Below, piece after piece: positions 44,438 through 61,274 of a stretch of 64,000 nucleotides of DNA. Within the stretch, counting starts at the first letter, position 1; each line of letters begins with the position of its first letter. This stretch comes from Clostridia bacterium. GTDB lineage: Bacteria > Bacillota > DAOUPZ01. Below the pieces are notes generated by a model that did not search any database, had not been told where the DNA came from, and worked only from the letters and a program-made list of their open reading frames with translations. The stretch spans positions 116,623 to 180,622 of the forward strand of contig DAOUPZ010000004.1 in assembly GCA_030625885.1 (NCBI GenBank). The letters are read 5' to 3'. The translations under genes were made by a program, and so were the position numbers.

Positions 44438-44550
44438 GGACGTCTCCCCCCAATAATAACTTACTTAACAAGATTAAAATGAACTGAGAATAGTAAAATT
44501 ATAACACAAAAAAATAATTGCTAAAAGAATTAGTCGTAATTTCAAAGGAT

Positions 44551-44590
44551 ATAACAAAAGCGCCTATTATCCTACTAATAGGCGCTTTTG
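44551..44590 (-). terminator. Perfect hairpin terminator overlapping 3' end of small ORF
   Basis: aaaagcgcctatta tcctac taataggcgctttt is a 14-bp perfect stem. Confidence 0.5.
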
Positions 44591-44722
44591 TTATATCCGT
44601 TTTTTGAACCCTCTGAAAAATACGCAATTTCTTCAGATGTTAAAATCTTAGTTGTTTCTTTCCCCGTATCCTTGTCATTACAAACACTTTGTTCGCTTTG
44701 CTTACTCTCATAACTCATAGAT
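44574..44722 (-). CDS. Small protein (47 aa) of unknown function, absent from the ORF track
   Basis: ATG with ideal AGGAGG RBS (6-nt spacer); TTGATA-16-TATAAT promoter-like sequence upstream; own terminator; translation MSYESKQSEQSVCNDKDTGKETTKILTSEEIAYFSEGSKNGYNKSAY. Confidence 0.35.
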
Positions 44723-45039
44723 ATAACGCCTCCTAAAGTTACTAATATCTCATAAAATTATATAATAAAACAACGAGATATCAACCTTATTATCGACAAA
44801 AATTTCTTGATTTTGTTATAATTATTATTGGTTTTCTACGGATATTGCAAAAAACCTCTTTATTTGTAGAAAACCAATAAAAAAAGACCCAAAGCACTAC
44901 ACCCTGGGCCTATCCTACTGCTTCTTTTATCTTTTCTTCTTTTATCTTTTCTTCTTTTACCGATCAGCTATTTAAATCTTCCATCATTTAAAACCCCAAC
45001 TTCATCATATAGAAGATCTCCATATCTTAATCCCTATCC

Positions 45040-45136
45040 TTAATCTTTTTCCTACCTGCTACCTGCTGTTCACTACCTGCTTCTTTTGTCTTTCATTCTT
45101 TTAAATGTAAACTGTCAATTGTCAACTGTCAACTGC
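45040..45136. repeat. Intergenic word-repeat element (cctacctgctacctgctgttcactacctgct; gtcaactgtcaattgtcaactgtcaactg)
   Basis: The 31-mer at 45051-45081 is identical to 9895-9924; a (gtcaact)n run follows; its reverse-complement word gacagttgacagt occurs at 63268-63290. Confidence 0.7.
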
Positions 45137-45892
45137 CTAAAACCCTTCCGCTTTTATTGCTGCTATAAATCGATTTGCGTTTGCCTTCTTTCTACAGGTT
45201 TCGCATTTTTTAATGTCAATATCATCTCCAAGCTTTTGGTATAGATAGGCTATTTCCTCTTCAGTCGCAAAATATTTTCCACACGCTTTGCATTGAACCA
45301 TTTTAAATGTTTTGCCCCAAATGGCCCGTGTTCCATTCTCCTCTAAATATTCAATCGCATTCGTCGGACAAACAGATGCGCAGGCACCACACCCAATACA
45401 AGGCTCAGACGGTTCGTCAAAAGGTGTACCCACTTTCTTTGCCGCCCCTCTAAAAACAGTATAAATCGCATTCGTCCCCATTGTCTCACAGGCCTTCACA
45501 CAAAGTCCGCATAACGTACATTTGTTTTCAGTATCCACTTTGCATCTATTAAACTCACGTACATCCTGTTGTTCCATCAGTTTCCTGATCATTTCACTAT
45601 TAGGCGCCATGGTATAATATAATTTTAGCAAGGTTTTTCTAATACGACGCAGTTTTTCATTATCCGTTACCACTTCTATTTCGCTTTGAATGGGATACGA
45701 ACAGGAAGCAACCCGTTTTGTAACGCCATTTTCAACAATTTCCACCATGCACAAGCGACAGGTTGCCAGACCGGGCAGCGCTTCAGAGTGACACAAAGTA
45801 GGAATATAAACATCATTTCGTTTGGCTGCTTCCAAAATGGTTTCACCATATTGTGCCTCTACCTTTTTCCCATCAATAATGATTTCCATCAT
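45137..45892 (-). CDS. NuoG/HndD-N-terminal-like iron-sulfur subunit ([2Fe-2S] + [4Fe-4S] clusters, C-terminal CxxC..CxxC), copy A
   Basis: 2Fe-2S ferredoxin motif CHSEALPGLATCRLCMVEI...C; His/Cys cluster CKVDTENKCTLCGLCVKAC; CIGCGACASVCP; no catalytic domain. Confidence 0.75.
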   Translation of the reverse strand: MMEIIIDGKKVEAQYGETILEAAKRNDVYIPTLCHSEALPGLATCRLCMVEIVENGVTKRVASCSYPIQSEIEVVTDNEKLRRIRKTLLKLYYTMAPNSEMIRKLMEQQDVREFNRCKVDTENKCTLCGLCVKACETMGTNAIYTVFRGAAKKVGTPFDEPSEPCIGCGACASVCPTNAIEYLEENGTRAIWGKTFKMVQCKACGKYFATEEEIAYLYQKLGDDIDIKKCETCRKKANANRFIAAIKAEGF

Positions 45893-45903
45893 GCTTCCCC
45901 CTT

Positions 45904-47742
45904 TTATTTCACTCTAACCGCATGAAACTGACAGTTATCCATACAAATACCGCATTTTGTACATTTTCCCTGATCTATAACGTGAAGTTGTTTTTTATCC
46001 CCTGAAATAGCGCCTACAGGACAACGCTTGGCACATACCGCACAACCCACACAAATCTTGGAATCAATATAGAACGCCGTCAAATCCTTACAAACCCCAG
46101 CCGGGCACCTCTTATTCTTAATATGTTCTTCAAATTCTACTCTAAAGTTTGCAATATTCGAAAGAACCGGATTGGGTGCTGATTTACCCAAAGCACAAAG
46201 GGAAGCTTCTTGAACCATTTGCCCAATTTCTACTAACAAATCAATATCGCCTTCTTGGCCTCTGCCTTCACAAATATCGGTCAAGATTTCCAACATCGTT
46301 TTAATCCCCTGCCGACAGGGCACACATTTCCCACAAGATTCTTCTGAGAGAAATTTCAAATAATACCGGGCAAATTCGACCATACAGGTCCGGTCATCAA
46401 CCACAATCATCCCACCCGAACCCATCATAGAACCTTCAGCAGTCAACGAATCAAAATCTACGGGTAAATCCAGCTTAGCTTCCGGAATACAGCCGCCGGA
46501 AGGACCGCCTGTCTGCACAGCCTTAAACTTTCGCCCCTTCGGAATTCCGCCGCCAATCTCAAAAATAATCTCCCGCAAAGTCGTCCCCATCGGTACTTCA
46601 ACTAAACCCGTATTATTGACCTTACCAACCAGCGCAAATACCTTGGTCCCGGGACTGTTTTCTGTCCCAATACTTCGAAAATAATCGGCACCCTTGTTAA
46701 TAATCACGGGTACATTTGTCCAAGTTTCGACATTGTTAATGACAGTAGGCTTCCCCCATAAACCCTTATCTGCAGGATAAGGCGGTTTAGGCACCGGTTC
46801 ACCAGTATTCCCCTCTATTGACCGTATCAGCGACATTTCCTCACCACAAACAAAGGCGCCGCCCCCTCTAACAATTTCAACATCAAACGAAAAGCCCGTA
46901 CCCAAAATATGTTCCCCTAAGAATCCCCTTTCACGCGCAGCAACAATCGCTCGCTTCATATTTTCCACGGCTAATCCATATTCATCACGAATATACAGGA
47001 ACCCATGATCGACCCCTATCGCATAACCACAGATGACCATTCCTTCCAATACCGCGTGTCCATCTCCCTCCAATACCGCTCGGTCCATAAACGCACCCGG
47101 GTCTCCTTCATCACCGTTGCAAATAACATATTTACATGTCCCTTCTGCTTGAGCCGCAAAAGACCATTTCAAACCGGTAGGAAATCCGCCGCCCCCTCTG
47201 CCGCGCAATCCTGATTTCTTGACTTCCTCAATAACTTCTGACCGCGTCATATCTTTTAATGCTTTTTCCAAAGCTTTGTAACCATCTCGCTCCAGATACT
47301 CGTCAATCTTACCCGGATCAATCAAACCTACATGACGCAAGGCAACTTTTTTCTGTTTACGATAGAATGTCCACTCATCGCGTTTAACCAGCTTCTTCTT
47401 TTGAATCTTATCCGTATATAATAACCGTTCTACCACTTCGCCCTTTAGAACAGTTTTTTCTATGATTTCCGATACATCTTCTACTTTCACTTTTATATAC
47501 GTGATATCATGAGGCAGAATGGTAACTAGCGGTCCATGCTCACAAAGGCCGTGGCAGCCTGTTGCTTTAATAGCAGGTGATGATTCTTTATCGCACTCAC
47601 ATTCAACCGTCATCGCCACTTCAACATTTAAGTAGCTTCCAGCTATATGCTTTTTAAAAGCTTCATAAACTTGCATGCTGTTATTTGCGATACAACCCGG
47701 ACCACAACAAACTAAAATCGTTAATCGTTTGCTACTTTGCAT
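45904..47742 (-). CDS. NuoF/HndC-like NAD(H)-binding flavoprotein subunit (N-terminal thioredoxin-like 2Fe-2S, FMN/NADH site, C-terminal 2x[4Fe-4S]), copy A
   Basis: GLRGRGGGGFPTGLKWSF NADH/FMN motif; N-terminal CCGPGC...C; C-terminal CVGCAVCAKRCP and CTKCGICMDNC ferredoxin motifs. Confidence 0.85.
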   Translation of the reverse strand: MQSSKRLTILVCCGPGCIANNSMQVYEAFKKHIAGSYLNVEVAMTVECECDKESSPAIKATGCHGLCEHGPLVTILPHDITYIKVKVEDVSEIIEKTVLKGEVVERLLYTDKIQKKKLVKRDEWTFYRKQKKVALRHVGLIDPGKIDEYLERDGYKALEKALKDMTRSEVIEEVKKSGLRGRGGGGFPTGLKWSFAAQAEGTCKYVICNGDEGDPGAFMDRAVLEGDGHAVLEGMVICGYAIGVDHGFLYIRDEYGLAVENMKRAIVAARERGFLGEHILGTGFSFDVEIVRGGGAFVCGEEMSLIRSIEGNTGEPVPKPPYPADKGLWGKPTVINNVETWTNVPVIINKGADYFRSIGTENSPGTKVFALVGKVNNTGLVEVPMGTTLREIIFEIGGGIPKGRKFKAVQTGGPSGGCIPEAKLDLPVDFDSLTAEGSMMGSGGMIVVDDRTCMVEFARYYLKFLSEESCGKCVPCRQGIKTMLEILTDICEGRGQEGDIDLLVEIGQMVQEASLCALGKSAPNPVLSNIANFRVEFEEHIKNKRCPAGVCKDLTAFYIDSKICVGCAVCAKRCPVGAISGDKKQLHVIDQGKCTKCGICMDNCQFHAVRVK

Positions 47743-48220
47743 CGACCATCCCTCCCTCTCTATATGATTCTAGAACCGCTCTTAATTTAGCAGGTGTCAA
47801 TTTCCCATAATACGATTCATTAATCATCATTACGGGGGCCAACGCACAGGAACCAATACAGTTAACAATTTCTAGAGAAAACTTTCCATCTGCAGTAGTC
47901 TGACCAGGATCAATCCCCAAAACGGCTTTAATCTCCGTAATTAAATTCATAGAACCTTTAATATGACAGGCTGTACCATCACAAACTTTAATAATATTTT
48001 CCCCCTTGGGTGTTAAACTAAAGGCTTTATAGAAAGTAACCACGCCATATACTTTAGTTAAAGGAACATCAAGATACTCACTTACCACTTCCAAGGATTG
48101 TTTGGGCAAATACTTGTATTTCCTTTGGATATCCTGCAATACGGCTAACAAAAAACGGGGTTCAGGCTTGTAAGTAGAAGCAACAACTAATGTTTCCTGT
48201 TTAATTTGTGATAAATCCAT
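47732..48220 (-). CDS. NuoE/HndA-like [2Fe-2S] thioredoxin-fold subunit, copy A
   Basis: CDGTACHIKGS...CIGSCALAP 2Fe-2S motif of the 24-kDa subunit family; start at MDLSQIK with GAGGGAGG RBS. Confidence 0.8.
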   Translation of the reverse strand: MDLSQIKQETLVVASTYKPEPRFLLAVLQDIQRKYKYLPKQSLEVVSEYLDVPLTKVYGVVTFYKAFSLTPKGENIIKVCDGTACHIKGSMNLITEIKAVLGIDPGQTTADGKFSLEIVNCIGSCALAPVMMINESYYGKLTPAKLRAVLESYREGGMVDAK

Positions 48221-48244
48221 CCTCTCAACCTCCCTCATTCATTT

Positions 48245-48400
48245 GGGTAAGTGGTAAGTAGGAAAAAGGTAAGTAAAAAATATAAAAAGCTAATAATTTT
48301 CAAAATAATAAAACTGTATAAGCTAACACTTTGTATATTATAAAAAATGTAAAAATAGACCGGCTTATTACATACCACTTACCACTTACCACTTACCTTA
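48245..48400. repeat. Intergenic word-repeat element (ggtaagtggtaagtaggaaaaaggtaagtaaaaa ... ccacttaccacttaccacttacc)
   Basis: Opposite-orientation copies of the (cttacca)n word flank an AT-rich segment between the AOR and NuoE-like genes of copy A; the same word occurs at 54985-55000 in copy B. Confidence 0.65.
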
Positions 48401-48423
48401 TTTTATGCTTTCTATAAATTAAG

Positions 48424-48455
48424 AAAAAGGAGAAGGAGCTCAGCTCCTTCTCCTT
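48424..48455 (-). terminator. Rho-independent terminator-like hairpin between AOR and NuoE-like genes, copy A
   Basis: ggagaaggagctgagctccttctcc perfect palindrome followed on the minus strand by ttttcttaatttat, 45 nt after the AOR stop. Confidence 0.55.
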
Positions 48456-48498
48456 TTCCCACTTTACTTATAAGCAGCTAATTTATCTTAACTTTTCA

Positions 48499-50361
48499 TT
48501 AATTATTCTTAGCTGAAGCCGCTTCTACAGCCCCTAGCATTTGTGCAAAAGCATCCTCTAAACCAAGCTCGACCATCTTATCTTTAGTGGGAACACCCGC
48601 TTGATCCCAACCTCGAAGTTGATAATATTCAGGAAGCATTTCATGTAAGCGGTTAACGCTGCCTTTATAGGAACCATTTTTTTGCGGCTCTTGCAAAAGT
48701 CTCTGTGGCAATGTATCGTCTTTACTTGTAAAGCCACACGCCATGTTAAATAACCGTTCTAAATTCCAAATTCTTTCCCCCGCTTTGAGTAATTCATCTG
48801 GACTATATTCAATACCCGTTGCTGCCGATACAACATTAGCAATAATATCAGCGCCAATTGCAAACGTTGTAAATAAACAGAAACCCGAAGCATCTACTGC
48901 GCCAGTCAAATCCTGGAATGCTTTACAGACACCTGCTTTTCCTTCTGTTACTGCCGGATCTAACTTCACGGGAATACCCAAAATTTCCGGAGCTGTCATA
49001 TACCCGCGCACATGGCAGCCACCACGATTATTGGTAGCATAATTTAAACCCATTCCCTGAAGTGTTCTGGGTTCATAAGCGGGCAATTCCTGTTTCTTAA
49101 CACTCATGGATAATTCCGGATGACCGTATTTCTCCGCTAAGCGATAAGAACCTTCCGCCAGTATATCACCAATATCTTCCCGGTAAGCCGTCTTAGTTAC
49201 CAAATCAGCTAAGATGCTCGCATTGCCAAACCTTAAATCACATCCGGCATCTTCGTTCGGCAGATAGCCGTTTTCATAAAGCTCCATGGCACAGGCTATC
49301 GTACAAGGCATGGAAATCGCATCCAATCCCAACTCATTGCAACGGAAGTTGGCTTGGCAAATCGCATCAATATCCTTGACACCACAGTCCGCACCAAAAC
49401 CCCAGCCTGCTTCATATTCGGGACCTTCTCCAAATCCTGCATATGGCTTGAATGTTCTGGTTACCCGACCACAACGCATCACACAGGAAAAGCAGCCTTT
49501 ATTACGCACCAAATTCTTATGTTCAATCATAAATTCACCACTGGTTTTATCTGCCCATTCTACCGTACCGGAATCACGGAAGTTACGTACCGGCAACCCA
49601 CCAGACTGATCTAAAATATTAATTAAAATTTGCGTACCATAAGTTGCTAAACCTGTACCCGTAACAGGATGTTCTAACAAAGCTTTTCGTGCTTCTTGGA
49701 TCGCTGCCATAAATTTTTCCCCATCAGGAACATGAACGGGATTCGTACCACGTACAACAATTCCCTTTAAATTTTTAGAACCCATAACCGCACCAACCCC
49801 AGTACGACCCGCTGCCCGATTCATTTCATTCATAATACAAGCTATTTTAGAAAGATTTTCCCCCCCAGGGCCAATACAAGCTACTTTAGCCATCTCATCC
49901 GTTTCTTCTTTTAACAGATCTGTTGTATCAGGTACTTCTTTGCCCCAGATATGATCTGCCGGACGAATTTCTACCTTGTCATTATTAATCCAGATATACA
50001 CTGGTTTTTCTGCTTTTCCTTCAATAACAACCACATCATAACCCGCATATTTCATTTCACTGCCAAAATACCCGCCGGAATTGGAACAAGCAATGGTCCC
50101 CGTAAGTGGTCCCCGCGTAATCACCATATATCGCCCGGCAGAAGGTGCCATGGTGCCTGTAAGCGGTCCTGTCACTAAATACATATTATTATCAGGACTT
50201 AAAGGATCGACGTTAGGACCTACTTCTTCGCAATACATTTTCGTCCCAAGTCCACGACCCCCAATAAAATCTTTCGCATATTTGGTATTTAATGGTTCCA
50301 TACTCGCTGTACCATTTGTCAAATTAACCCTTAAAATCTTATTTTGGTAGCTGCTCATCAT
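48499..50361 (-). CDS. Tungsten-type aldehyde:ferredoxin oxidoreductase (AOR family catalytic subunit), copy A
   Basis: 620 aa; AOR N-terminal domain (KILRVNLTNG...YIGGRGLG), pterin/[4Fe-4S]-binding region, C-terminal AOR domains; ~95% identical to copy B. Confidence 0.9.
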   Translation of the reverse strand: MMSSYQNKILRVNLTNGTASMEPLNTKYAKDFIGGRGLGTKMYCEEVGPNVDPLSPDNNMYLVTGPLTGTMAPSAGRYMVITRGPLTGTIACSNSGGYFGSEMKYAGYDVVVIEGKAEKPVYIWINNDKVEIRPADHIWGKEVPDTTDLLKEETDEMAKVACIGPGGENLSKIACIMNEMNRAAGRTGVGAVMGSKNLKGIVVRGTNPVHVPDGEKFMAAIQEARKALLEHPVTGTGLATYGTQILINILDQSGGLPVRNFRDSGTVEWADKTSGEFMIEHKNLVRNKGCFSCVMRCGRVTRTFKPYAGFGEGPEYEAGWGFGADCGVKDIDAICQANFRCNELGLDAISMPCTIACAMELYENGYLPNEDAGCDLRFGNASILADLVTKTAYREDIGDILAEGSYRLAEKYGHPELSMSVKKQELPAYEPRTLQGMGLNYATNNRGGCHVRGYMTAPEILGIPVKLDPAVTEGKAGVCKAFQDLTGAVDASGFCLFTTFAIGADIIANVVSAATGIEYSPDELLKAGERIWNLERLFNMACGFTSKDDTLPQRLLQEPQKNGSYKGSVNRLHEMLPEYYQLRGWDQAGVPTKDKMVELGLEDAFAQMLGAVEAASAKNN

Positions 50362-50364
50362 TGC

Positions 50365-50844
50365 TTATTCCACCTCCTCAAATATTTTTTTGAATTTTTC
50401 GGCATACATCGCTTTCTTAGTCAGCATACCTTTGTCCGCTTCCTTATATTCAATTGCCTCATTGGGGCAGAATTTAACACATTCCGGATCGCCGCCGCAC
50501 AAATCACATTTAATAACGCTTTTTGTTTCACTATCGTAGCTCGCATTACCAAATGGACAGGCACTGATACATAATTTACAACCAATACATTTATCTTTAT
50601 CCCATAAAACACCATTTGCTTCTTCATCACGATGCAGCGCACCTGTCATACAAACTTCGACGCAAGGGGCATCATCACAATGCATACACATCAACGGAAC
50701 ACCTAATCCTAAACGCTCCCAGACTAAAGCATGTACTCTCGACTTATTGGGATTAAATACGCCTTCATGTGCAAAGGAACAAGCGAGCTCACAATTACGA
50801 CAGCTTGCACACTTGCTTGGCTGAACCATTAAAATTTTCGCCAT
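50365..50844 (-). CDS. Polyferredoxin-like 4x[4Fe-4S] electron-transfer subunit (AorA-like), copy A
   Basis: Four CxxCxxCxxxCP-type motifs in 160 aa; stop overlaps the AOR start (translational coupling). Confidence 0.8.
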   Translation of the reverse strand: MAKILMVQPSKCASCRNCELACSFAHEGVFNPNKSRVHALVWERLGLGVPLMCMHCDDAPCVEVCMTGALHRDEEANGVLWDKDKCIGCKLCISACPFGNASYDSETKSVIKCDLCGGDPECVKFCPNEAIEYKEADKGMLTKKAMYAEKFKKIFEEVE

Positions 50845-50853
50845 CACTTCCCC

Positions 50854-51062
50854 GCTTCAATTTGATATTGAAGCAGGTTCCACCTCCTCGTATTATTATT
50901 TATCACCCTACAATGAAGCGCCTTCCTTTTCACCTCCTCAATTATTATTTATTTCAATGCTCCTTTGCACACTGGCAGGTATAAGAATTACTCCTTATGC
51001 CCTATCGCCCTGAATTCCCCCGTTCTTCTTGTGGAACTTCCAGGGTCGGAGATATGATTGCT
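50854..51062 (-). promoter_or_regulatory. Conserved 5' leader of ferredoxin-AOR unit, copy A (hairpin abutting RBS, two GAGGAGGTG motifs, ~100-nt conserved block)
   Basis: gcttcaat ttga tattgaagc hairpin at 50854-50874; the block at 50955-51060 is ~80% identical to 57578-57670 upstream of copy B. Confidence 0.45.
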
Positions 51063-51465
51063 TATACTTATATCATTTCAGACAATCATATATCATAAAT
51101 ATATGAAACTATTTCCTTTATATATACCTCTATTAAGGTGTTTTTAGAATACAATGATTCCCTTAGTTTTTATACGCTATATGATGGCATTAAAGTTTTA
51201 CATTTAGAATTGCCCCATCTTTCCTTCGCTTTTCCTGCAAACCTGCAATGTAAATTCTTGATTGCATGATATGTAGTCGTTTGATAATATCAAATGTTAT
51301 TTATTTATATTTAGTTCAGTTTCATTATATTCCTATCCATTTTATTGTACAAATTCCTCGTATTGTAATTTATATCTATAATATGGATTATAACGCATTT
51401 ATTTAATATTAACTGTTTACACCCTTTACTTTCGCGCTTTATCAATATCTTCCATAAGGAAAATA

Positions 51466-51495
51466 AAAAAAGACCCAAAGCCCTAGGCTTTGAGT
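51466..51495 (-). terminator. Rho-independent terminator after MoaD-like gene
   Basis: Minus strand agactcaaagcctagggctttgggtcttttttt: GC-rich stem plus U-run immediately 3' of the stop. Confidence 0.5.
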
Positions 51496-51774
51496 CTACC
51501 CTCCTGCTACAACAGGGAAAATAGATACTTGATCACTTGCTTGTAATTTTGTATGAATGCCATCTAAATGGGCAACATGCCGCCCATTTACCAATACAAT
51601 GATGAGATTATTCAAATCATCCTCAGTCTCATTAAACACCGCTTCTCTAAATTTCTTCCCATAATGCTGTGAAAGTTGCTGTAATAATGCCTGCAAATCA
51701 TCCGCTGGATCATTCCAGGTTGTTTCCTTTTCTCGGGTAAAATCACGGATATAAGCAAAATATTTAATATTCAT
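51496..51774 (-). CDS. MoaD/ThiS-family small sulfur-carrier-like protein (C-terminal Gly-Gly)
   Basis: 92 aa ending ...SIFPVVAGG; beta-grasp-sized; last gene of Nuo-like unit of copy B; absent from copy A. Confidence 0.5.
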   Translation of the reverse strand: MNIKYFAYIRDFTREKETTWNDPADDLQALLQQLSQHYGKKFREAVFNETEDDLNNLIIVLVNGRHVAHLDGIHTKLQASDQVSIFPVVAGG

Positions 51775-51789
51775 AAGTTCCCTCCCTTT

Positions 51790-51850
51790 TTTCAGCTCTT
51801 AGCAGTTAGCTTTTTCTTTTCCTAACTGCTAACTCCTAACTCCTAACTGC
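51790..51850. repeat. Intergenic word-repeat hairpin (ttagcagttagc...cctaactgctaactcctaactcctaactgc)
   Basis: agcagttag / ctaactgct inverted repeat plus (taactcc)n; same words as 9669-9692 in opposite orientation. Confidence 0.65.
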
Positions 51851-51902
51851 TTCTTTTTTCTTCACTCTTCCAGCAACTAAAGGGAGCGTTCTTTACTCTC
51901 TC

Positions 51903-52673
51903 TCAAATATCCAATTCTGCCTTTAACGCTTCCTTAAATTTTGCCGCATTCCCCTTTTGCTTACACTTTTCACACAATGCCATATCCATATCATTACCAA
52001 TCTTTTGCTTGACATAAGCAATTTCTTGTGCTGTAGCAAAATATTTACCGCATTCCTTACATTGAATCAATTCAAAGGTTTTATCCCAAATGGTTCTTAC
52101 CCCATTTTCTTGAGTCATTTGAATGGCTTCTGTTGGACAAACTGAAGCACATGCTCCGCACCCAATACAAGAATCAGAGGGTTCATCAAAAGGTGTGCCT
52201 ACTTTCTTTTCCGCCCCTCTAAATACAGTAGAAATGGCATTTGTACCCATTTCTTCACAAGCTTTTACGCATAGTCCACACAATACACAATTTTCTGCCA
52301 AATGTGTTTCCCCTTTATTAACCTGCAAGCGTTTTATTTCCGGTACATCATACTTTTCTTTTAACGCCTTAATATCTTTATTATGAGGGACACGCGCACT
52401 ATATAAATTGAGCAGCACATTTCTTGTTCTTCGTATGGTCTCATTATCAGTGGTAACTTCCATACCTTCATGAACAGGATAAGCACAAGATGCCACCCGC
52501 TTGGTCACACCGTTTTCTTTTACTTCCACCATACAAATCCGGCAGCTTGTAATGCCGGGTAATGCATCCGAATAACATAACGTCGGGATATCAATACCAT
52601 TGCGACGTGCTGCTTGTAAAATCGTTTCACCTTCTTGTACTGCTGCCTTTTTCCCATCAATGATAATTTCCAT
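51903..52673 (-). CDS. NuoG/HndD-N-terminal-like iron-sulfur subunit, copy B
   Basis: Same cysteine architecture as 45137-45892 (CYSDALPGITSCRICMVEV; CVLCGLCVKAC; CIGCGACASVCP; CKECGKY...CEKCKQK) at ~55-60% identity. Confidence 0.75.
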   Translation of the reverse strand: MEIIIDGKKAAVQEGETILQAARRNGIDIPTLCYSDALPGITSCRICMVEVKENGVTKRVASCAYPVHEGMEVTTDNETIRRTRNVLLNLYSARVPHNKDIKALKEKYDVPEIKRLQVNKGETHLAENCVLCGLCVKACEEMGTNAISTVFRGAEKKVGTPFDEPSDSCIGCGACASVCPTEAIQMTQENGVRTIWDKTFELIQCKECGKYFATAQEIAYVKQKIGNDMDMALCEKCKQKGNAAKFKEALKAELDI

Positions 52674-52687
52674 AATCTCCCCTCCTT

Positions 52688-54484
52688 CTATTTTACTTTT
52701 ATTGCATTAAATTTACAACTGTCAATACAAATACCGCATTTTGTACATTTCTCCGAATCAATCACGTGAAGTTGTTTCTTTTCTCCCGAAATAGCGCCTA
52801 CCGGACAGCGTTTAGCGCATAAGGTACATCCTTTACAGGCTTCTGCATCAACATAAAACTCTGTTAAATCCTTACAAACCCCCGCCGGGCATCTCTTATT
52901 CTTAATATGCTCTTCAAACTCTTCCCTAAAGTTCTCGATATTTGAAATAACAGGATTAGCCGCTGTTTTCCCTAATGCACAAAGGGATGACTCTTGAATC
53001 GCTTCTCCCATTTCTAATAATAAATCAATATCGCCTTCTTGGCCTCGACCTTCACAAATATCACCTAATATTTCCAGCATTCTCTTAATACCTTCACGGC
53101 AGGGGGCACATTTTCCGCAAGATTCCCCATAAAGAAATTGCATATAGAAACGAGCTACTTCGACCATACAAGTCCGATCATCCATAACAACCAACCCACC
53201 AGAACCCATCATGGAACCTTCTGCTGTCAAGGAATCAAAATCAACCGGTAAGTCTAATTTAGATTCTGGAATACATCCCCCGGAAGGCCCGCCTGTTTGT
53301 ACGGCTTTAAATTTTCTGCCACCGGGAATACCTCCGCCAATATCAAAAATAAGTTCTCTTAAAGTAATCCCCATCGGTACTTCTACCAGACCTGTATTTG
53401 CAATTTTACCAACCAGTGCAAAAACCTTGGTCCCCGGACTGTTTTCCGTACCAATAGAACGGAACCAATCTGCTCCTTTATTGATAATAAGCGGTACATT
53501 GGACCATGTTTCTACATTATTGATAATGGTAGGTTTACCCCATAACCCTTTATCTGCTGGGAATGGCGGCTTCTGAACCGGTTCACCCGTCTTCCCTTCT
53601 ATCGAAGCGATCAACGCTGTTTCTTCCCCACAAACAAAAGCCCCGCCGCCTCTAACAATCTCGGCATCAAAGGAAAATTCCGTCCCCAAAATGTTTTCGC
53701 CTAAGAAGCCTCTTTTTTTGGCCGCTTCGATTGCTTTTTTCATGTTCTTAACAGCCAATCCATATTCATCCCGAACATAGAGAAAACCACGATTAGCACC
53801 AATAGCATAGGCACATATAGCCATTCCTTCTAAAACAGTATGTGGATCACCTTCTAATACTGAGCGATCCATAAATGCGCCCGGGTCTCCTTCGTCAGCA
53901 TTACAAATAACATATTTAGGTGACCCCTCTGCCTTAGCAGCAAACGACCATTTCAAGCCAGTCAAAAATCCACCACCGCCCCTGCCACGCAGTTTGGAAT
54001 GCTTCATTTCATCAATCACTTCTTGAGGTTTCATGTTCTTCAAAACCTTTGCAATGGCTTTGTAGCCGTCTCTTTCAATATAATCATCAATACTTTCGTT
54101 ATCAATATGTCCTACATTGCGCAACGCTAAACGCATCTGCTTTTTATCAAACGTCCAATCTTCTTTAGACTGAACTTTTGCTTTTTGCTGTGCATCAAAA
54201 TATAAAAGACGATCAATTACTTCATTATTAGTAATACTTTTTGCAATAATCTCCGGAACATCGGAATCTTTGACATGAACATAGGTAATCTGCTGAGGGA
54301 GAATATGTACGAGCGGCCCTTTTTGACAAAGTCCATGACAACCTGTTCCCTTAACATCCGGGATCAGCTCTACATCTAACTCTAGCGCTTTTAATTGTTC
54401 TTTAAATGCATCATAGATCTTCTGACTGCCATTTGCCAAACAACCCGTACCACAGCAAACCAGAATCGTTTTTTTACTTTCCAT
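52688..54484 (-). CDS. NuoF/HndC-like NAD(H)-binding flavoprotein subunit, copy B
   Basis: GLRGRGGGGFLTGLKWSF; N-terminal CCGTGC; C-terminal tandem ferredoxin motifs; ~80% identical to copy A. Confidence 0.85.
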   Translation of the reverse strand: MESKKTILVCCGTGCLANGSQKIYDAFKEQLKALELDVELIPDVKGTGCHGLCQKGPLVHILPQQITYVHVKDSDVPEIIAKSITNNEVIDRLLYFDAQQKAKVQSKEDWTFDKKQMRLALRNVGHIDNESIDDYIERDGYKAIAKVLKNMKPQEVIDEMKHSKLRGRGGGGFLTGLKWSFAAKAEGSPKYVICNADEGDPGAFMDRSVLEGDPHTVLEGMAICAYAIGANRGFLYVRDEYGLAVKNMKKAIEAAKKRGFLGENILGTEFSFDAEIVRGGGAFVCGEETALIASIEGKTGEPVQKPPFPADKGLWGKPTIINNVETWSNVPLIINKGADWFRSIGTENSPGTKVFALVGKIANTGLVEVPMGITLRELIFDIGGGIPGGRKFKAVQTGGPSGGCIPESKLDLPVDFDSLTAEGSMMGSGGLVVMDDRTCMVEVARFYMQFLYGESCGKCAPCREGIKRMLEILGDICEGRGQEGDIDLLLEMGEAIQESSLCALGKTAANPVISNIENFREEFEEHIKNKRCPAGVCKDLTEFYVDAEACKGCTLCAKRCPVGAISGEKKQLHVIDSEKCTKCGICIDSCKFNAIKVK

Positions 54485-54959
54485 GGTTCTCCCCTCCTCT
54501 ATAACGATTGATAATTTCTCTCAATGAAGCTGGTGTTAAATTACCATGATATTCATCATTAATTACAACAACGGGTGCTAATCCACAAGCGCCCACACAA
54601 CCAACGGTTTCTAATGAAAATTTACCATCTTCGCTCGTCTCACCCGGCTCTATTCCAAGAATATCTTTTACTTCTTGTATCAAATTCATAGAACCTTTAA
54701 CATGACAGGCTGTGCCGTCGCATACTTTAATAATATTCTCACCTTTGGGTTTTAAACTTAACGCTTTATAAAAAGTAGCAACACTATAAACTTTTGTCAG
54801 TTCCACCCCAACATACTCCGCAACAATCACCAAAGATTCTTTAGGTAAATAATTATATTTTCTTTGCACATCCTGTAGTATGGCTAATATGAATCGCCGT
54901 TCAGGCTTGTAACTAGAAGCAATCGCCAACGTTTCCTGTTTAACCTGTGATAAATCCAT
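54474..54959 (-). CDS. NuoE/HndA-like [2Fe-2S] subunit, copy B
   Basis: CDGTACHVKGS...CVGACGLAP; ~85% identical to copy A. Confidence 0.8.
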   Translation of the reverse strand: MDLSQVKQETLAIASSYKPERRFILAILQDVQRKYNYLPKESLVIVAEYVGVELTKVYSVATFYKALSLKPKGENIIKVCDGTACHVKGSMNLIQEVKDILGIEPGETSEDGKFSLETVGCVGACGLAPVVVINDEYHGNLTPASLREIINRYRGGENHGK

Positions 54960-55002
54960 CCCTCAACCTCCCTCATTCATTTTGGTAAGTGGTAAGTGGG
55001 AA

Positions 55003-55036
55003 AAAGGAGAAGGAGCTCATCTCCTTCTCCTTTTTC
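55003..55036 (-). terminator. Terminator-like hairpin between AOR and NuoE-like genes, copy B
   Basis: ggagaaggagctcatctccttctcc with flanking A/T runs; same position as the hairpin in copy A. Confidence 0.5.
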
Positions 55037-55075
55037 CACTTTACTTATAAGCAGCTAATTTATCTCAACTTCTCA

Positions 55076-56938
55076 TTAATTATTTTGAGCCGCAGCCGCT
55101 TCTACAGCCCCTAGCATTTGTGCAAAAGCATCCTCTAAACCAAGCTCGACCATCTTATCTTTAGTGGGAACACCCGCTTCAGTCCAACCACGCAATTCAT
55201 AATACTCTGGAAGCATTTCATGTAAACGGTTGACGCTGCCTTTATAGGGACCAAATTTTTGCGGCTCTTGCAAAAGTCTCTGTGGCAATGTATCATCTTT
55301 ACCCGTAAAGCCACACGCCATATTAAATAACCGTTCTAAATTCCAAATTCTTTCCCCCGCTTTGAGTAATTCATCTGGACTATATTCAATACCTGTTGCT
55401 GCCGATACAACATTAGCAATAATATCAGCACCAATAGCAAACGTTGTAAATAAGCAAAAACCCGAAGCATCTACTGCACCAGTTAAATCCTGGAACGTTT
55501 TACAGACACCTGCTTTTCCTTCTGTTACTGCTGGATCTAATTTCACCGGAAGACCCAAAATTTCAGGGGAAGTCATATACCCGCGCACATGACAGCCGCC
55601 ACGGTTATTGGTAGCATAATTTAAACCCATCCCTTGAAGTGTTCTCGGTTCATAAGCCGGCAATTCCTGTTTCTTAACGCTCATCGATAATTCCGGATGA
55701 CCGTATTTCTCCGCTAAGCGATAAGAACCTTCCGCCAGCATATCACCAATACCTTCCCGGTAAGCCGTCTTAGTTACTAAATCAGCTAAAATACTGGCAT
55801 TGCCAAAGCTTAAATCACATCCCGCATCTTCTTTAGGCAAATACCCGTTTTCATAAAGTTCCATGGCACAAGCAATGGTACAAGGCATGGAAATCGCATC
55901 CAATCCCAACTCATTGCAACGGAAGTTAGCTTGGCAAATTGCATCGATATCATCAACATCACAATCGGCACCAAAACCCCAGCCTGCTTCATATTCAGGC
56001 CCTTCACCAAATCCAGCATATGGTTTATAGGTTTTAGTCACTCGACCGCAACGCATCACGCAGGAGAAGCAGCCTTTATTACGCACCAGATTCTTATGTT
56101 CAATCATAAATTCACCACTGGTTTTATCCGCCCATTCTACCGTACCGGAATCACGGAAATTGTGGACAGGCAGCCCACCAGACTGATTTAAAATATTAAT
56201 CAAAATTTGCGTTCCGTATGTTGGAAGACCTGTTCCTGTAACAGGATGTTCAGCCAATACTTTACGCGCTTCTTCGATCGCTGCCATAAATCTTTCCCCA
56301 TCAGGAACATGAACGGGATTCGTACCACGTACAACAATTCCCTTTAAATTTTTAGAACCCATAACCGCACCAACACCTGTACGACCTGCCGCTCGATTCA
56401 TTTCATTCATAATACAAGCTATTTTAGAAAGGTTTTCCCCCGCTGGGCCGATACAAGCTACTTTAGCCATCTCGTCCGTTTCTTCTTTTAACAGATCTGT
56501 TGTATCGGGTACTTCTTTGCCCCAGATATGATCTGCTGGATGAATTTCTACCTTGTCATTATTAATCCAGATATACACTGGTTTTTCCGCTTTTCCTTCA
56601 ATAACAACCACATCATAACCCGCATATTTCATTTCACTGCCAAAATACCCGCCGGAATTAGAACAAGCAATGGTCCCCGTAAGTGGTCCCCGCGTAATCA
56701 CCATATATCGCCCGGCAGAAGGTGCCATGGTGCCTGTAAGCGGTCCTGTCACTAAATACATATTATTATCAGGGCTTAATGGATCGACGTTGGTTCCTAC
56801 TTCTTCATAATACATTTTCGTCCCAAGTCCACGACCACCGATGTAGTCCTTAGCATATGATTCATTTAAAGGTTCCGTACTGACTTTACCCGTTGTCAAG
56901 TTAATTCTTAAGACTTTATTTTGGAAACTGTTAGCCAT
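55076..56938 (-). CDS. Tungsten-type aldehyde:ferredoxin oxidoreductase (AOR family), copy B
   Basis: Start placed at [14 protein letters not shown], overlapping the ferredoxin stop as in copy A; long stretches identical at nucleotide level to copy A (e.g. 55090-55178 vs 48513-48600). Confidence 0.9.
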
Positions 56939-56939
56939 C

Positions 56940-57419
56940 TTATTCCACCTCCTCAAATACTTTTTTGAATTTTTCCGCATACATGGCTTTCTTGGCCATC
57001 ACGCCTTCATTTGCTTCCTTATATTCAATCGCCTGATTAGGACAAATCCTCACACATTGTGGATCCCCACCGCATAAATCACATTTGATAACCTGTTTTG
57101 TTTCATTATCATAACTGGCATTACCAAAAGGACAGGCACTAACGCATAATTTACAACCGATACATTTGTTTTTATCCCATAAGACACCATTTGCTTCTTC
57201 ATCACGATGCAATGCCCCCGTTGGGCAAACCCCGGCACACGGAGCATCATCACAATGCATACACATCAATGGAACACCTAATCCTAAGCGTTCCCAAACC
57301 AATGCATGTACTCTTGATTTATTGGGATTAAATACACCTTCATGTGCAAAGGAACAAGCCAGTTCACAGTTACGGCAACTAGCGCATTTATCCGGATGAA
57401 TCATTAAAATTTTTGCCAT
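56940..57419 (-). CDS. Polyferredoxin-like 4x[4Fe-4S] subunit (AorA-like), copy B
   Basis: 160 aa, ~92% identical to 50365-50844. Confidence 0.8.
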
Positions 57420-57428
57420 CACTTTCCT

Positions 57429-57670
57429 GCTTCAACTTTAAATAAATGGCACATCTACTTTAAGTTGAAAGCAGGTTTCACCTCCTCTATATTATTTTTT
57501 TAGGAAAAGCCGATACTTACCCTTTCACCCCCTCAATCATATTCATCTCATTTTTCATTTCTATCATGGCTCTTTTGCACATTGGCAGATATAAAAATTG
57601 CTTTTTATACCCTATCGCCTGGAAATTCACACTTTGTGTGGAATTTCTAGGTTCAGAGATATGATTATGT
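57429..57670 (-). promoter_or_regulatory. Conserved 5' leader of ferredoxin-AOR unit, copy B
   Basis: Imperfect hairpin cttcaacttta...tttaagttgaag next to the RBS; GAGGAGGTG motifs; conserved block with near-palindrome cctggaaattcacac ttt gtgtggaatttctagg. Confidence 0.45.
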
Positions 57671-57871
57671 TGTACCATGTGATGCGAATTATTTTGATAT
57701 TATCAAACTAAGTTTTATATTTATTTAATTTATTTTTATTATATCAACTGATGTTTTATTAATCCAACTTTTTTATCTCTTAATTATTAAGTTTAATACC
57801 TAATAAGGCAATTTTTCTTACCCTTGCTCTTTATATATCTTTTTTTCATGTTTTTTCATTTAAAATAAAAA

Positions 57872-57909: not shown

Positions 57910-58455
57910 TTATACGACTAATTTTTTCTTTTCTTCCAACACCCCTGCTTTAGCAAGAAACTTAAACAACAGAGGAATAAACATCAATTGCATTATAATA
58001 CCAGGAAGTCCTTTTATAATAGAACCATATACAAATATCAAGGGATTTACGGGCAATCCTCCAAATCCGGTTATATGAACCATGACCCATACAACCATTC
58101 CAGCTGCCATGCGCCCGCCTAACATCGCAATTAGTAATGATATCCAAATATTGCGCCCTCTTTTTTCAAAAGTAAAACCAGTCAAAAATCCATATACACC
58201 TAATTCAAAGAACATGATCGGCAACATGGGTATTACGGGCGGCATACCCGTTAATAATGTGCTTAATAACACAGTAAGCATACCTATTAATGCACCCCAA
58301 CAAGGTCCTAACATTAATCCTGCAATCAAAACGGGAATATGCATCGGTAGGAAAATTGCACCCCCAATGCCGACAGCATGAAACCCCATCGGTAATACAA
58401 TGCCCATTGAAATGAGAAATGATCCATTTAACATCATTTTAGTCTTTATCTTCAC
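57910..58455 (-). CDS. ECF-transporter substrate-specific (S) component, ThiW-like
   Basis: 181 aa, ~6 TM; GIVLPMGFHAVGIGGAIFLPMHIPVLIAGLMLGP resembles ThiW-type S components; no adjacent EcfA/T genes or riboswitch seen. Confidence 0.55.
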   Translation of the reverse strand: MKIKTKMMLNGSFLISMGIVLPMGFHAVGIGGAIFLPMHIPVLIAGLMLGPCWGALIGMLTVLLSTLLTGMPPVIPMLPIMFFELGVYGFLTGFTFEKRGRNIWISLLIAMLGGRMAAGMVVWVMVHITGFGGLPVNPLIFVYGSIIKGLPGIIMQLMFIPLLFKFLAKAGVLEEKKKLVV

Positions 58456-58755: not shown

Positions 58756-58924
58756 ATAAGCATAGTTTGCTAATGTAAAATTAATTTTCATATAATCAAA
58801 CAATCATCTTTATTTAAATATTAAAAAAGGAGGTAAACAAAACACGAGTTAAAATTTTCGTAGTATCCTATGCACAAATATTAATGTGCATAAAATTGAA
58901 ACTAATGATGAGGAGGAGAAAACT

Positions 58925-60500: not shown

Positions 60501-61274
60501 CTACAACACCACATTATGAACCATCTCAGACAAAACTCGTCCATATTTTACCACTATTTTAATCATGTCTTTTATCCGCTTATCTGTCATATGTGACGGA
60601 GGGCCGGAAACAGAAACCGTGGCAATAATTTTATCACCAAAGCCAAATACCGGTGCGGCAATCGTGATCGATTCATCATGCTCCCCATCATTAGCTGCAA
60701 AGCTGCGCAATCTTATTTCCATCAACTCTTTATTTAAAACTTCACGATCGGTAATGGTGTTTTTTGTAAAACGCGGCATCCCCGTTTGCTCTAATATTTT
60801 TTCTCGTTCCCCTTCTCCTAAAAAAGCCAAAAATACTTTCCCTGAAGCACTTGCATGCATAGGCACACTGTTCCCAATCGGGTTATGGCTATGAAGCGGC
60901 GAATAGACTTCTCTAGCTAATACACAGGTGGCTTTATTCCCACTATAAATATAGAAATATACACTTTCACTTACTTCATTCTGTAACTCACGTAAAACAG
61001 CATCAATATCCTGATAGGGAAAATCTTTACGAAGATAACATTCACCAACACGAAAAGCTTCTGGCCCAATACGATACTTCTTATTTTCTTGGTTTTGTAT
61101 CACATACTTTTCCATCACCAGTGTCGCTAAATAATGATGCATGGTGCTTTTGTTAATTTTTAATGATTCTACTAAGTCCGTAATACTCACTTCTTGATTT
61201 AATGTAGCCATATAGCTTAAAATTTGCAAACATTTTTGGGCAGAACCAATAATCTTTACTTCTTTTTGTGTCAT
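60501..61274 (-). CDS. IclR-family transcriptional regulator
   Basis: N-terminal wHTH (ITDLVESLKINKSTMHHYLATL) and C-terminal IclR effector-binding domain; 257 aa. Confidence 0.85.
   Translation of the reverse strand: MTQKEVKIIGSAQKCLQILSYMATLNQEVSITDLVESLKINKSTMHHYLATLVMEKYVIQNQENKKYRIGPEAFRVGECYLRKDFPYQDIDAVLRELQNEVSESVYFYIYSGNKATCVLAREVYSPLHSHNPIGNSVPMHASASGKVFLAFLGEGEREKILEQTGMPRFTKNTITDREVLNKELMEIRLRSFAANDGEHDESITIAAPVFGFGDKIIATVSVSGPPSHMTDKRIKDMIKIVVKYGRVLSEMVHNVVL

Follow-up and report, generated by a model that had tools for sequence, protein, structure and literature searches.

The stretch analysed here, a 64,000-nucleotide (nt) window of contig DAOUPZ010000004.1 of a Clostridia bacterium to which all positions below refer, contains two direct tandem operon units that fill 44876-57707 on the minus strand. 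By gene content both units are WOR1/Wor-Bfu-type (WorABCSL) operons; the enzyme, known here from its genes, is predicted to be an electron-bifurcating tungsten aldehyde oxidoreductase. The upstream unit was termed B (51462-57707, minus strand) and the downstream unit A (44876-51294, minus strand). The comparison of the two units showed a patchwork of at least four ages, which is neither a gradient nor a pair of modules. Units A and B have segment-specific histories that only recombination can produce. The explanation that we prefer, with a probability of about 0.6, is an old duplication followed by repeated gene conversion everywhere except in one cassette at the junction of the NuoE-like and NuoF-like genes.

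Each unit is about 6.4-6.6 kb long, and homologous positions of the two units are 6577 nt apart. A unit starts with a palindrome and a leader of about 110 nt, which are followed by the genes for a ferredoxin and a tungsten aldehyde:ferredoxin oxidoreductase (AOR), a GC-rich hairpin and the genes for NuoE-like, NuoF-like and short NuoG-like subunits, and it ends with a terminator-like hairpin. The units differ structurally in three respects: a ThiS/MoaD-like gene, a 153-nt insertion and a private insertion in the NuoF-like protein of unit A (NuoF-A).

Divergence between the copies was determined gene by gene. The AOR proteins (WorL-like; unit A 48499-50361, 620 amino acids; unit B 55076-56938; these and all following genes of the units are on the minus strand) are 93.2% identical, with a synonymous divergence (dS) of 0.35 by the NG86 method and a ratio of nonsynonymous to synonymous divergence (dN/dS) of about 0.1. 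The ferredoxins (WorS-like, 160 amino acids each; 50365-50847 and 56940-57422) are 87.5% identical with a dS of 1.22. Values for the three remaining pairs are 68.9% and 1.45 for the NuoE-like subunits (WorC/BfuC; 47732-48238, 168 amino acids, and 54474-54959, 161 amino acids), 74.4% and 2.08 for the NuoF-like subunits (WorB/BfuB; 45904-47742, 612 amino acids, and 52688-54484, 598 amino acids, P0003), and 63.2% and 2.84 for the short NuoG-like subunits (WorA/BfuA; 45137-45892, 251 amino acids, and 51903-52673, 256 amino acids). NG86 and third-position differences were chosen because YN00 and maximum likelihood gave unstable dS values, or none, for the saturated genes. Among codons for the same amino acid, the fraction that differs between A and B is 0.35 in the ferredoxin gene, 0.18 in AOR, 0.42 in NuoE, 0.49 in NuoF and 0.54 in NuoG. 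This heterogeneity across the five genes is highly significant (chi-square 127.5, p = 1.3e-26); NuoE, NuoF and NuoG are mutually homogeneous at synonymous codons (p = 0.17). In a gapped alignment scored in windows of 100 nt, nucleotide identity is 76-88% in the ferredoxin gene, 82-100% in most of AOR, 61-85% in NuoE, 57-81% in NuoF (two gapped windows at its 5' end reach 38-41%) and 46-84% in NuoG, with a large step at the AOR/NuoE boundary.

An earlier sequence-only reading of this locus had ranked the five gene pairs correctly by identity, and its claims of long identical stretches and of non-uniform divergence hold. One of the two long exact runs described below, of 86 nt, is essentially the example that it quoted. 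dS differs strongly among the genes; uniform synonymous divergence, which that reading had named as the result that would refute it, is not what we see. Several of its identities need revision: those for AOR (about 95%), ferredoxin (about 92%) and NuoF (about 80%) were too high, that for NuoE (about 85%) was clearly wrong, and that for NuoG (55-60%) was too low. The gradient of divergence that it described was not found. In the order of the genes, divergence is intermediate in the ferredoxin gene, low in AOR, high in NuoE and NuoF and high in NuoG, which is a patchwork.

The patchwork continues inside AOR, where synonymous differences occur in clusters (permutation of window variance, p = 0.0015; maximal chi-square, p = 0.016). 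The youngest conversion tract covers AOR codons 56-215 (49719-50196 in unit A, 56296-56773 in unit B, minus strand), with 96.9% nucleotide identity, a dN of 0.005 and a dS of 0.13. It holds the longest exact run between the units, 113 nt (50084-50196 = 56661-56773), and 49965-50196 is identical to unit B at 232/234 nt. A second young tract comprises AOR codons 391-620, the stop codon and the downstream hairpin (48423-49191; unit B: 55000-55768; minus strand); it has a dS of 0.26 and holds the 86-nt run (48517-48602 = 55094-55179), and 48423-48722 is 92% identical to 55000-55299. The part between the two tracts, codons 216-390 (49192-49718; unit B: 55769-56295; minus strand), is of intermediate age, with a dS of 0.63 and 87.6% nucleotide identity. 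The first 55 AOR codons, with a dS of 1.13, match the ferredoxin gene (about 1.2). Over the whole unit, dS falls into tiers of 0.13, 0.26, 0.63 and about 1.1, followed by values of at least 1.7 and saturation in NuoF and NuoG; short NuoE segments gave unstable dS values of 0.97-2.8.

A similar picture was obtained when the A-B distance at codon positions 1 and 2 was normalised to the outgroup distance. In AOR this ratio is 0.04 for codons 56-215, 0.19 for codons 391-621, 0.32 for codons 216-390 and 0.71 for the first 55 codons. It is 0.30 in the N-terminal and 0.64 in the C-terminal half of the ferredoxin, 0.94 from residue 41 to the end of NuoE, 1.11, 0.80 and 0.61 in the successive thirds of NuoF and 0.6-0.8 in NuoG. 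Gene conversion between A and B in AOR is strongly supported by these data. The presence of at least three dS tiers in AOR points to several conversion events rather than one, and a single recombination event was rejected on the multiple tiers.

The large identity step at the AOR/NuoE boundary could also mean that one recombination joined a young ferredoxin-AOR module to an old Nuo module, with no ongoing conversion, and the enzyme is indeed built of two functional modules, a (WorSL)3 nanowire and a WorABC core (PMC12318220). We regard such a joining as very unlikely, since the unit shows at least four divergence tiers, AOR is itself a patchwork (dS 0.13, 0.26, 0.63 and 1.13) with significant clustering, and the ferredoxin gene, with its dS of about 1.2, is unlike most of AOR. 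Moreover, the C-terminus of NuoF and NuoG also group A with B as sisters.

Relatives of the two units were collected by scans of genomes, metagenomes and a protein collection: L001 and L002 (Peptococcaceae bacteria UBA4068 and UBA5752), L066, L067+L129, L072, L134, L135 and L136. The typed relatives have a single unit each, with the same gene order and a cassette of one type or the other (see below). Five of them (L001, L002, L066, L135 and L136) have both flanks on the contig; they carry the unit at the same chromosomal position, with FIST and IclR-family genes upstream, and are demonstrably single-unit there. For L072 and L067+L129 one flank lies off the contig, and the L134 contig begins about 90 nt upstream of the ferredoxin gene, so that a second unit is argued against only by the unbroken contig. 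In L067/L129 the unit is split inside AOR across two contigs of one sediment metagenome; a repeat could cause such a split. Scans of the genome and metagenome collections with AOR-A yielded 133 loci, among which there was no second two-unit genome and none closer than about 80% AOR identity.

These relatives allowed us to calibrate the low divergence of AOR. In the ortholog pairs L001-L002, L001-L066 and L002-L066, dN(AOR)/dN(NuoF) is 0.9-1.1, and dS(AOR) equals or exceeds dS(NuoF) where it can be estimated. The corresponding A-B ratios are 0.21 for dN and 0.17 for dS, so that AOR divergence between A and B is about five-fold below the expectation from NuoF. Since AOR diverges as fast as NuoF in orthologs, its low A-B divergence does not come from constraint. 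A single duplication without recombination, combined with gene-specific constraint or codon-usage selection on AOR, is accordingly hardly credible: AOR is a conserved enzyme and its dN/dS of about 0.1 between A and B would suit this explanation, but orthologous AOR keeps pace with NuoF at both dN and dS, the exact 113 nt and the 232/234 identity take in synonymous sites, and adjacent segments of the unit conflict in topology with strong support on both sides. The ortholog calibration and the conflicting topologies led us to reject both gene-specific constraint and codon bias as explanations.

The conflict in topology is located at the NuoE/NuoF junction. Sliding-window comparison with the relatives revealed two deep types of one segment, which begins near NuoE residue 100-130 and ends near NuoF residue 150-230. 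The alpha type is found in A, L134 and L135, the beta type in B, L001, L002, L066, L072, L129 and L136. Identity in this cassette is 51-58% between alpha and beta and 61-94% within a type. By diagnostic sites, the alpha-type cassette of unit A, which encodes the C-terminal part of NuoE and the N-terminal [2Fe-2S] domain of NuoF, extends minimally over 47299-47851 and maximally over 46542-47998; the beta-type cassette of unit B, encoding the same parts, extends minimally over 54083-54590 and maximally over 53326-54737 (both minus strand). Nucleotide identity between the A and B cassettes is about 62%.

Neighbour-joining trees placed A and B as sisters with 100% bootstrap support for ferredoxin, AOR and NuoE residues 1-90 together, and with 96% for NuoF from residue 261 to the end. 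In the cassette, B lies within the beta clade (100% bootstrap) and A outside it, together with L134 and L135 at 75% bootstrap. Site patterns gave the same result. At 22 alpha/beta-diagnostic sites A has one residue in common with both alpha relatives and B another in common with the beta relatives; all of them lie between NuoE column 130 and NuoF column 375 and none outside; 19 of the 22 are in the minimal cassette, and the other three, NuoF columns 222, 228 and 375, are within its maximal extent. One site has the opposite pattern. At 82 sites A and B share a residue that is absent from all other relatives, and the region that begins at NuoE column 81 and ends at NuoF column 400 contains none of these. 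For the 22 diagnostic against the 82 shared sites, inside versus outside the cassette, Fisher's test gave p = 5e-23. Quartet parsimony outside the cassette supports A with B by 63-103 sites versus at most 6 in the 5' part and by 28-51 versus at most 5 in the 3' part; in the cassette, A with alpha and B with beta is supported by 22-28 sites versus 0-4 for A with B. A and B are also mutual closest relatives in NuoG, in the ferredoxin gene and in two parts of the other Nuo genes, the beginning of NuoE and the C-terminal third of NuoF; their divergence is older there.

These results narrow what the sequence-only reading had proposed for the origin of the pattern. Gene conversion of an AOR/ferredoxin half is borne out for AOR and fails for the ferredoxin, whose dS is about 1.2; because the ferredoxin gene lies outside the recently homogenised tract at synonymous sites, the word half was an overstatement. 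Conversion is also not confined to the catalytic half, since the sister relationship of A and B extends to NuoG, to the beginning of NuoE and to the last third of NuoF. Its other proposal, modules of different age, was right in that an old module exists, yet this module is the small cassette at the NuoE-NuoF junction and not the whole Nuo half.

In the history that we propose, the duplication would be old and would predate the split from the closest known relatives. Gene conversion, that is non-reciprocal homologous recombination between the units, would then have repeatedly overwritten everything but the cassette. The oldest overwriting would have affected the C-terminal third of NuoF and NuoG, an intermediate one the ferredoxin gene together with AOR codons 1-55 and the beginning of NuoE, and the latest would consist of several overlapping tracts in AOR and the downstream hairpin. 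The cassette would never have been overwritten. It may have escaped because about 62% nucleotide identity does not offer the exact matches that recombination needs; a further possibility, which does not exclude the first, is that chimeras within a co-adapted, interacting pair of cluster-binding domains were selected against.

Single-unit relatives would have arisen by unequal crossover in the homogenised parts, collapsing the beta-alpha tandem to one unit. A crossover 5' of the cassette would leave an alpha unit and a crossover 3' of it a beta unit. Sequence comparison indicates that L134 and L135 are themselves mosaics. L134 resembles L001 at 92-95% identity in ferredoxin and AOR, at 87% in the stretch formed by the NuoF C-terminus and NuoG, and at 52% in the cassette; L135 is 93-95% identical to L066 in ferredoxin and AOR and up to the middle of NuoE, and 57-75% beyond, with 57% in the cassette. 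The crossover model reproduces these mosaics, in which L134 agrees with L001 on either side of the cassette and L135 with L066 in the 5' part only. That the exact repeats make the locus prone to deletion or amplification, as had been suggested before, is plausible and fits the observation that each of the seven related loci with a typed Bfu half contains one unit.

The main competitor of an old duplication is one specific to the lineage of the window, with the alpha cassette imported later into unit A by horizontal transfer and homologous recombination, and likewise into L134 and L135; conversion would still explain the AOR tiers. Gene conversion within AOR in this genome is required under either of these two explanations. 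An import would agree with the sister relationship of A and B everywhere outside the cassette and with the mosaic structure of the relatives (L134 versus L001, L135 versus L066), and it requires no losses, as the sampled relatives are single-unit at the same locus. The distances between the cassettes speak for an old duplication. Because each type holds a window member and members of the sister group, the alpha/beta split would be older than the separation of the lineages, and an old, vertically inherited duplication predicts parallel within-type distances of matched hosts. In the cassette, dN is 0.131 between L134 and L135 (alpha) and likewise 0.131 between L001 and L066 (beta); A is separated from its alpha relatives by 0.23-0.24 and B from its beta relatives by 0.19-0.21. 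Three independent imports do not predict that alpha-alpha distances track beta-beta distances. Furthermore, a profile search with the three alpha N-terminal domains yielded no new alpha members and only short or partial proteins of at most 54% identity, so that no donor lineage was found, and a type that is 42-49% different from beta would still need an origin in unsampled lineages. We therefore consider an import unlikely.

Several points weigh against the old duplication with repeated conversion. The two cassette types are known to occur together in one genome only, that of the window, and the model consequently needs several independent losses. There are only three alpha sequences, which leaves about two degrees of freedom for the argument from co-divergence, and bootstrap support for their clade is only 75%. 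The trees are neighbour-joining trees on simple distances. NuoF columns 151-400 give no clear quartet signal, which makes the 3' edge of the cassette uncertain. Synonymous sites are saturated outside AOR, and the older tiers are therefore ordered mainly by dN and outgroup-normalised distances. Finally, it is a single assembly, with its 184-kb source contig, that shows the units linked in tandem.

This last point bears on the question whether the locus is an assembly artefact, in which two strains or populations were joined in tandem or reads of two copies were mixed into identical patches. The source is one 184-kb contig of a public assembly, and short-read contigs of the same run break at the repeat: the L138 contig stops after 48 nt of AOR-B and about 18 nt of the 86-nt exact repeat, near where this repeat would be expected to break a k-mer assembly. 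On the other hand, an independent assembly of run SRR14270297 contains 45052-48133 and 51815-55123 of the window at 100% identity in two short contigs, and since it contains both Bfu halves, both exist in this sample. The units also differ structurally (ThiS deletion, 153-nt insertion, NuoF-A insertion), each with complete regulatory ends, and a chimera of two strains would still require recombination to yield 97% identity in one part and 62% in another. An artefact is thus highly improbable.

The cassette coincides with a part of the enzyme to which a function has been assigned. In NuoF-A, the alignment with NuoF of complex I begins at about residue 143, which makes the NuoF part of the cassette an extra N-terminal, thioredoxin-like [2Fe-2S] domain. 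In the WorABCSL structure this N-terminal NuoF-type domain holds cluster B5 (PMC12318220). Structures place the [2Fe-2S] clusters C1 and B5 in the C-terminal part of BfuC and the N-terminal domain of BfuB, and C1 moves in catalysis (PMC9304861, PMC12318220). In the paper on the Bfu family, C1 and B5 were proposed to remain adjacent and to act jointly as the switch, and in published models the mobile C1-B5 iron-sulfur unit is the gate of Bfu-type electron bifurcation. Both cassette types are under purifying selection (within-type dN/dS 0.05-0.10) and keep all columns of cysteine ligands; the cysteine columns of NuoE are kept in both types. It is possible, although we offer this only tentatively and find it more doubtful than not, that the mobile C1-B5 unit occurs here in two versions of different function, the alpha and the beta cassette, both kept by selection since before the lineage split. 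The two cores would then share a homogenised WorSL nanowire module, and one-unit relatives would have fixed either type.

The process and the enzyme family are both known, and the novelty is modest; of interest are the cassette dimorphism and the position of the unconverted segment at the proposed bifurcation switch. The locus offers a textbook-quality case of concerted evolution of tandem operons, in which the unconverted cassette serves as an internal control that would date the duplication. Annotation could err in either direction here, by taking the AOR pair for a recent duplication or the Nuo halves for unrelated acquisitions. For those who work on Bfu-type bifurcation it is useful that the never-homogenised segment is the C-terminal part of BfuC with the N-terminal domain of BfuB, and two natural, purifying-selected variants of the C1-B5 unit in an otherwise near-identical enzyme background amount to a ready-made swap experiment. 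The exact repeats of 86-113 nt break short-read assemblies at this locus and may hide similar tandem pairs in metagenome-assembled genomes.

The remaining features of the units were annotated as follows. The longest open reading frame of AOR-B runs to 56980, which puts its start 42 nt upstream of ATG 56938 and gives an overlap of 41 nt with the end of the ferredoxin gene. Judged by the layout in unit A and in the relatives, translation probably begins at ATG 56938. The ThiS/MoaD-like gene (WorX-like; 51496-51774, minus strand; PF02597, E = 1.6e-15) is present only in unit B. This gene closes the unit in all close relatives, and unit A keeps only its last bases before the shared terminator. The private insertion in NuoF-A, TVECECDKESSP, comprises about 12 amino acids (residues about 45-58; 47569-47610, minus strand) with two extra cysteines inside the N-terminal [2Fe-2S] domain and is absent from B, from the other two alpha-type proteins and from all beta-type proteins. 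The NCBI database version of NuoF-A (P0001, 590 amino acids) begins at Met23, so that CCGPGC, a conserved motif in the N-terminal cluster domain, is lost; the 612-amino-acid reading agrees with the relatives and with an independent Logan gene call.

Upstream of both units lies the same 15-nt perfect palindrome, TTTGATAWTATCAAA, as a candidate operator: TTTGATATTATCAAA at 57693-57707 marks the upstream edge of the duplicated unit B, and TTTGATAATATCAAA is found at 51280-51294 in unit A. A further match with 2 mismatches is located at 58786-58800. Because a similar palindromic motif is kept in the leaders of L001, L002, L066, L135 and L136, next to an IclR-family gene, the palindrome may be the operator of an IclR-family regulator. 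IclR and FIST genes flank the operon directly in relatives; in the window they lie about 3 kb upstream of the operon (IclR 60501-61274, FIST 61400-62458), with two other genes inserted between. On its upstream side, unit B is immediately preceded by a gene for an S-component of an energy-coupling factor transporter (57910-58455, minus strand), which stands between the operon and the IclR/FIST genes.

The leader of unit A (50944-51063, minus strand) resembles a molybdenum cofactor/tungsten cofactor (Moco/Tuco) riboswitch: it scored 35.5 bits against RF01055, for which the gathering score is 36 (E = 2.4e-5), and its central hairpin is deleted. The leader of unit B (57565-57672, minus strand) is homologous to it by alignment; it gave no RF01055 match even at E <= 10, and Rfam returned only noise. 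As judged by eye from the alignment, the P1 element reads CUCU...AGAG in unit B and CUCC...GGAG in unit A. None of six related loci scanned with Rfam had a Moco match at the gathering score. The Rfam matches to Plastid-psbA-2, mir-627 and sraL were discarded as hairpin look-alikes far below the gathering scores. On the 5' side of the ferredoxin start (50848-50900 and 57423-57500, minus strand), GGAGGTGAAA, CTGC, a short hairpin, GCAG and the start codon follow each other; this arrangement is kept in L001, L002, L066, L135 and L136. A Shine-Dalgarno-like sequence lies about 40 nt from the ferredoxin start codon, across the hairpin.

After AOR, unit A has a terminator-like hairpin of 18 pairs before NuoE (48422-48460, minus strand), and its GC-rich counterpart in unit B is located at 54999-55037 (minus strand); the latter was scored on the plus strand because its stem is palindromic. 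The 153-nt insertion between the post-AOR hairpin and NuoE (48270-48422, minus strand) is found only in unit A. It is AT-rich and contains a heptamer repeat (48373-48397), which corresponds in inverted complement to the CTTACC-type repeats that immediately precede NuoE. Promoter-like hexamers were noted in it by eye; a consensus scan reported none. Other copies of the insertion were not found in the window or in the fetched loci.

Unit B ends with a terminator-like hairpin (51471-51497, minus strand) within the repeat 51462-51508, which matches 44876-44922 (minus strand; repeat family D6), the end of unit A with the ThiS 3' remnant and the terminator-like hairpin 44885-44911. A 15-nt repeat follows the terminator of unit A (44921-44959). 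Tandem repeats with a unit of 7 nt occur in the spacers after NuoG and after AOR in both units (45106-45135, 45052-45067, 51820-51848, 48373-48397 and 54983-54999), and the repeat unit after NuoG differs between the copies (TGTCAAC versus TCCTAAC). Two independent short-read contigs end at or beside such spacer repeats (45052 and 51815). A perfect palindromic hairpin of 20 pairs (44549-44596), between unit A and a convergent DHH/CBS/CCA-type gene (41807-44437), is probably a bidirectional terminator; it gave a spurious sub-threshold Rfam match to a plastid 3' untranslated region family.

The assignment to the Wor-Bfu type is based on domain and structure matches. AOR-A matched PF02730 (AFOR_N, E = 2.8e-84) and PF01314 (AFOR_C, E = 2.7e-145), and its best match among solved structures is 9mqx chain D (E = 7.7e-244). 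Both ferredoxins show four cysteine-rich motifs of the [4Fe-4S] type, and the ferredoxin of unit A matched Fer4_11 and Fer4_7. NuoE-A matched PF01257 (E = 2.9e-51). In NuoF-A, Pfam detected Complex1_51K, SLBB, NADH_4Fe-4S, a C-terminal Fer4 and, weakly, an N-terminal 2Fe-2S_thioredx domain; its matches to solved structures include 8a6t_B, 7t2r_B and 9mqx_B, and it aligns over its full length with bifurcating HydB and WorB chains. The short NuoG-like subunits have Pfam matches to Fer2_4 and a Fer4 (4Fe-4S) dicluster, and a CxxC...CxxC sequence motif stands near the C-terminus of both copies, where a BfuA/WorA protein would have a Zn-finger plus helix.

WOR1/Wor-Bfu is known from Acetomicrobium mobile and Eubacterium limosum (PMC9304861, PMC11725836, PMC12318220; PDB 9mqx) and, as cited in PMC9304861, from PMC8639347. 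The units described here share with it the four-cluster ferredoxin, AOR, the NuoE-, NuoF- and short NuoG-like subunits and the ThiS/MoaD-like accessory gene, and the Moco/Tuco-riboswitch-like leader upstream of unit A may have its counterpart in the leader of E. limosum wor1. In E. limosum, wor1SL is expressed threefold above wor1XABC (PMC11725836), and the published stoichiometry is ABC(SL)3 (PMC12318220); a post-AOR hairpin that acts as a partial terminator would fit both. Gene order is S-L-C-B-A-X here, unlike the S-L-X-C-B-A of E. limosum. Unlike the known WOR1/Wor-Bfu systems, the operon is tandemly duplicated here, and its copies hold deeply different NuoE C-terminal/NuoF N-terminal cassettes.

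The AorABC operon of Aromatoleum aromaticum includes a MoaD-like accessory gene. As in AorABC, the AOR is here combined with an AorA/WorS-like, nanowire-forming polyferredoxin (cited in PMC12318220). Unlike the NuoE/NuoF/NuoG-type Bfu core of the units described here, AorC is a FAD-containing, NAD-binding subunit.

The tufA/tufB genes of Salmonella and rRNA operons are bacterial paralogs under concerted evolution by gene conversion. The two units resemble them in that paralogs of the same genome are closer to each other than to orthologs, synonymous sites are homogenised, and high identity comes in patches, with tract lengths from a few hundred to about 2000 nt. They differ from them in that the converted repeats are whole multi-gene operons in direct tandem, and in that an internal cassette would have escaped conversion since before the split from the nearest relatives, so that a single unit records both histories.

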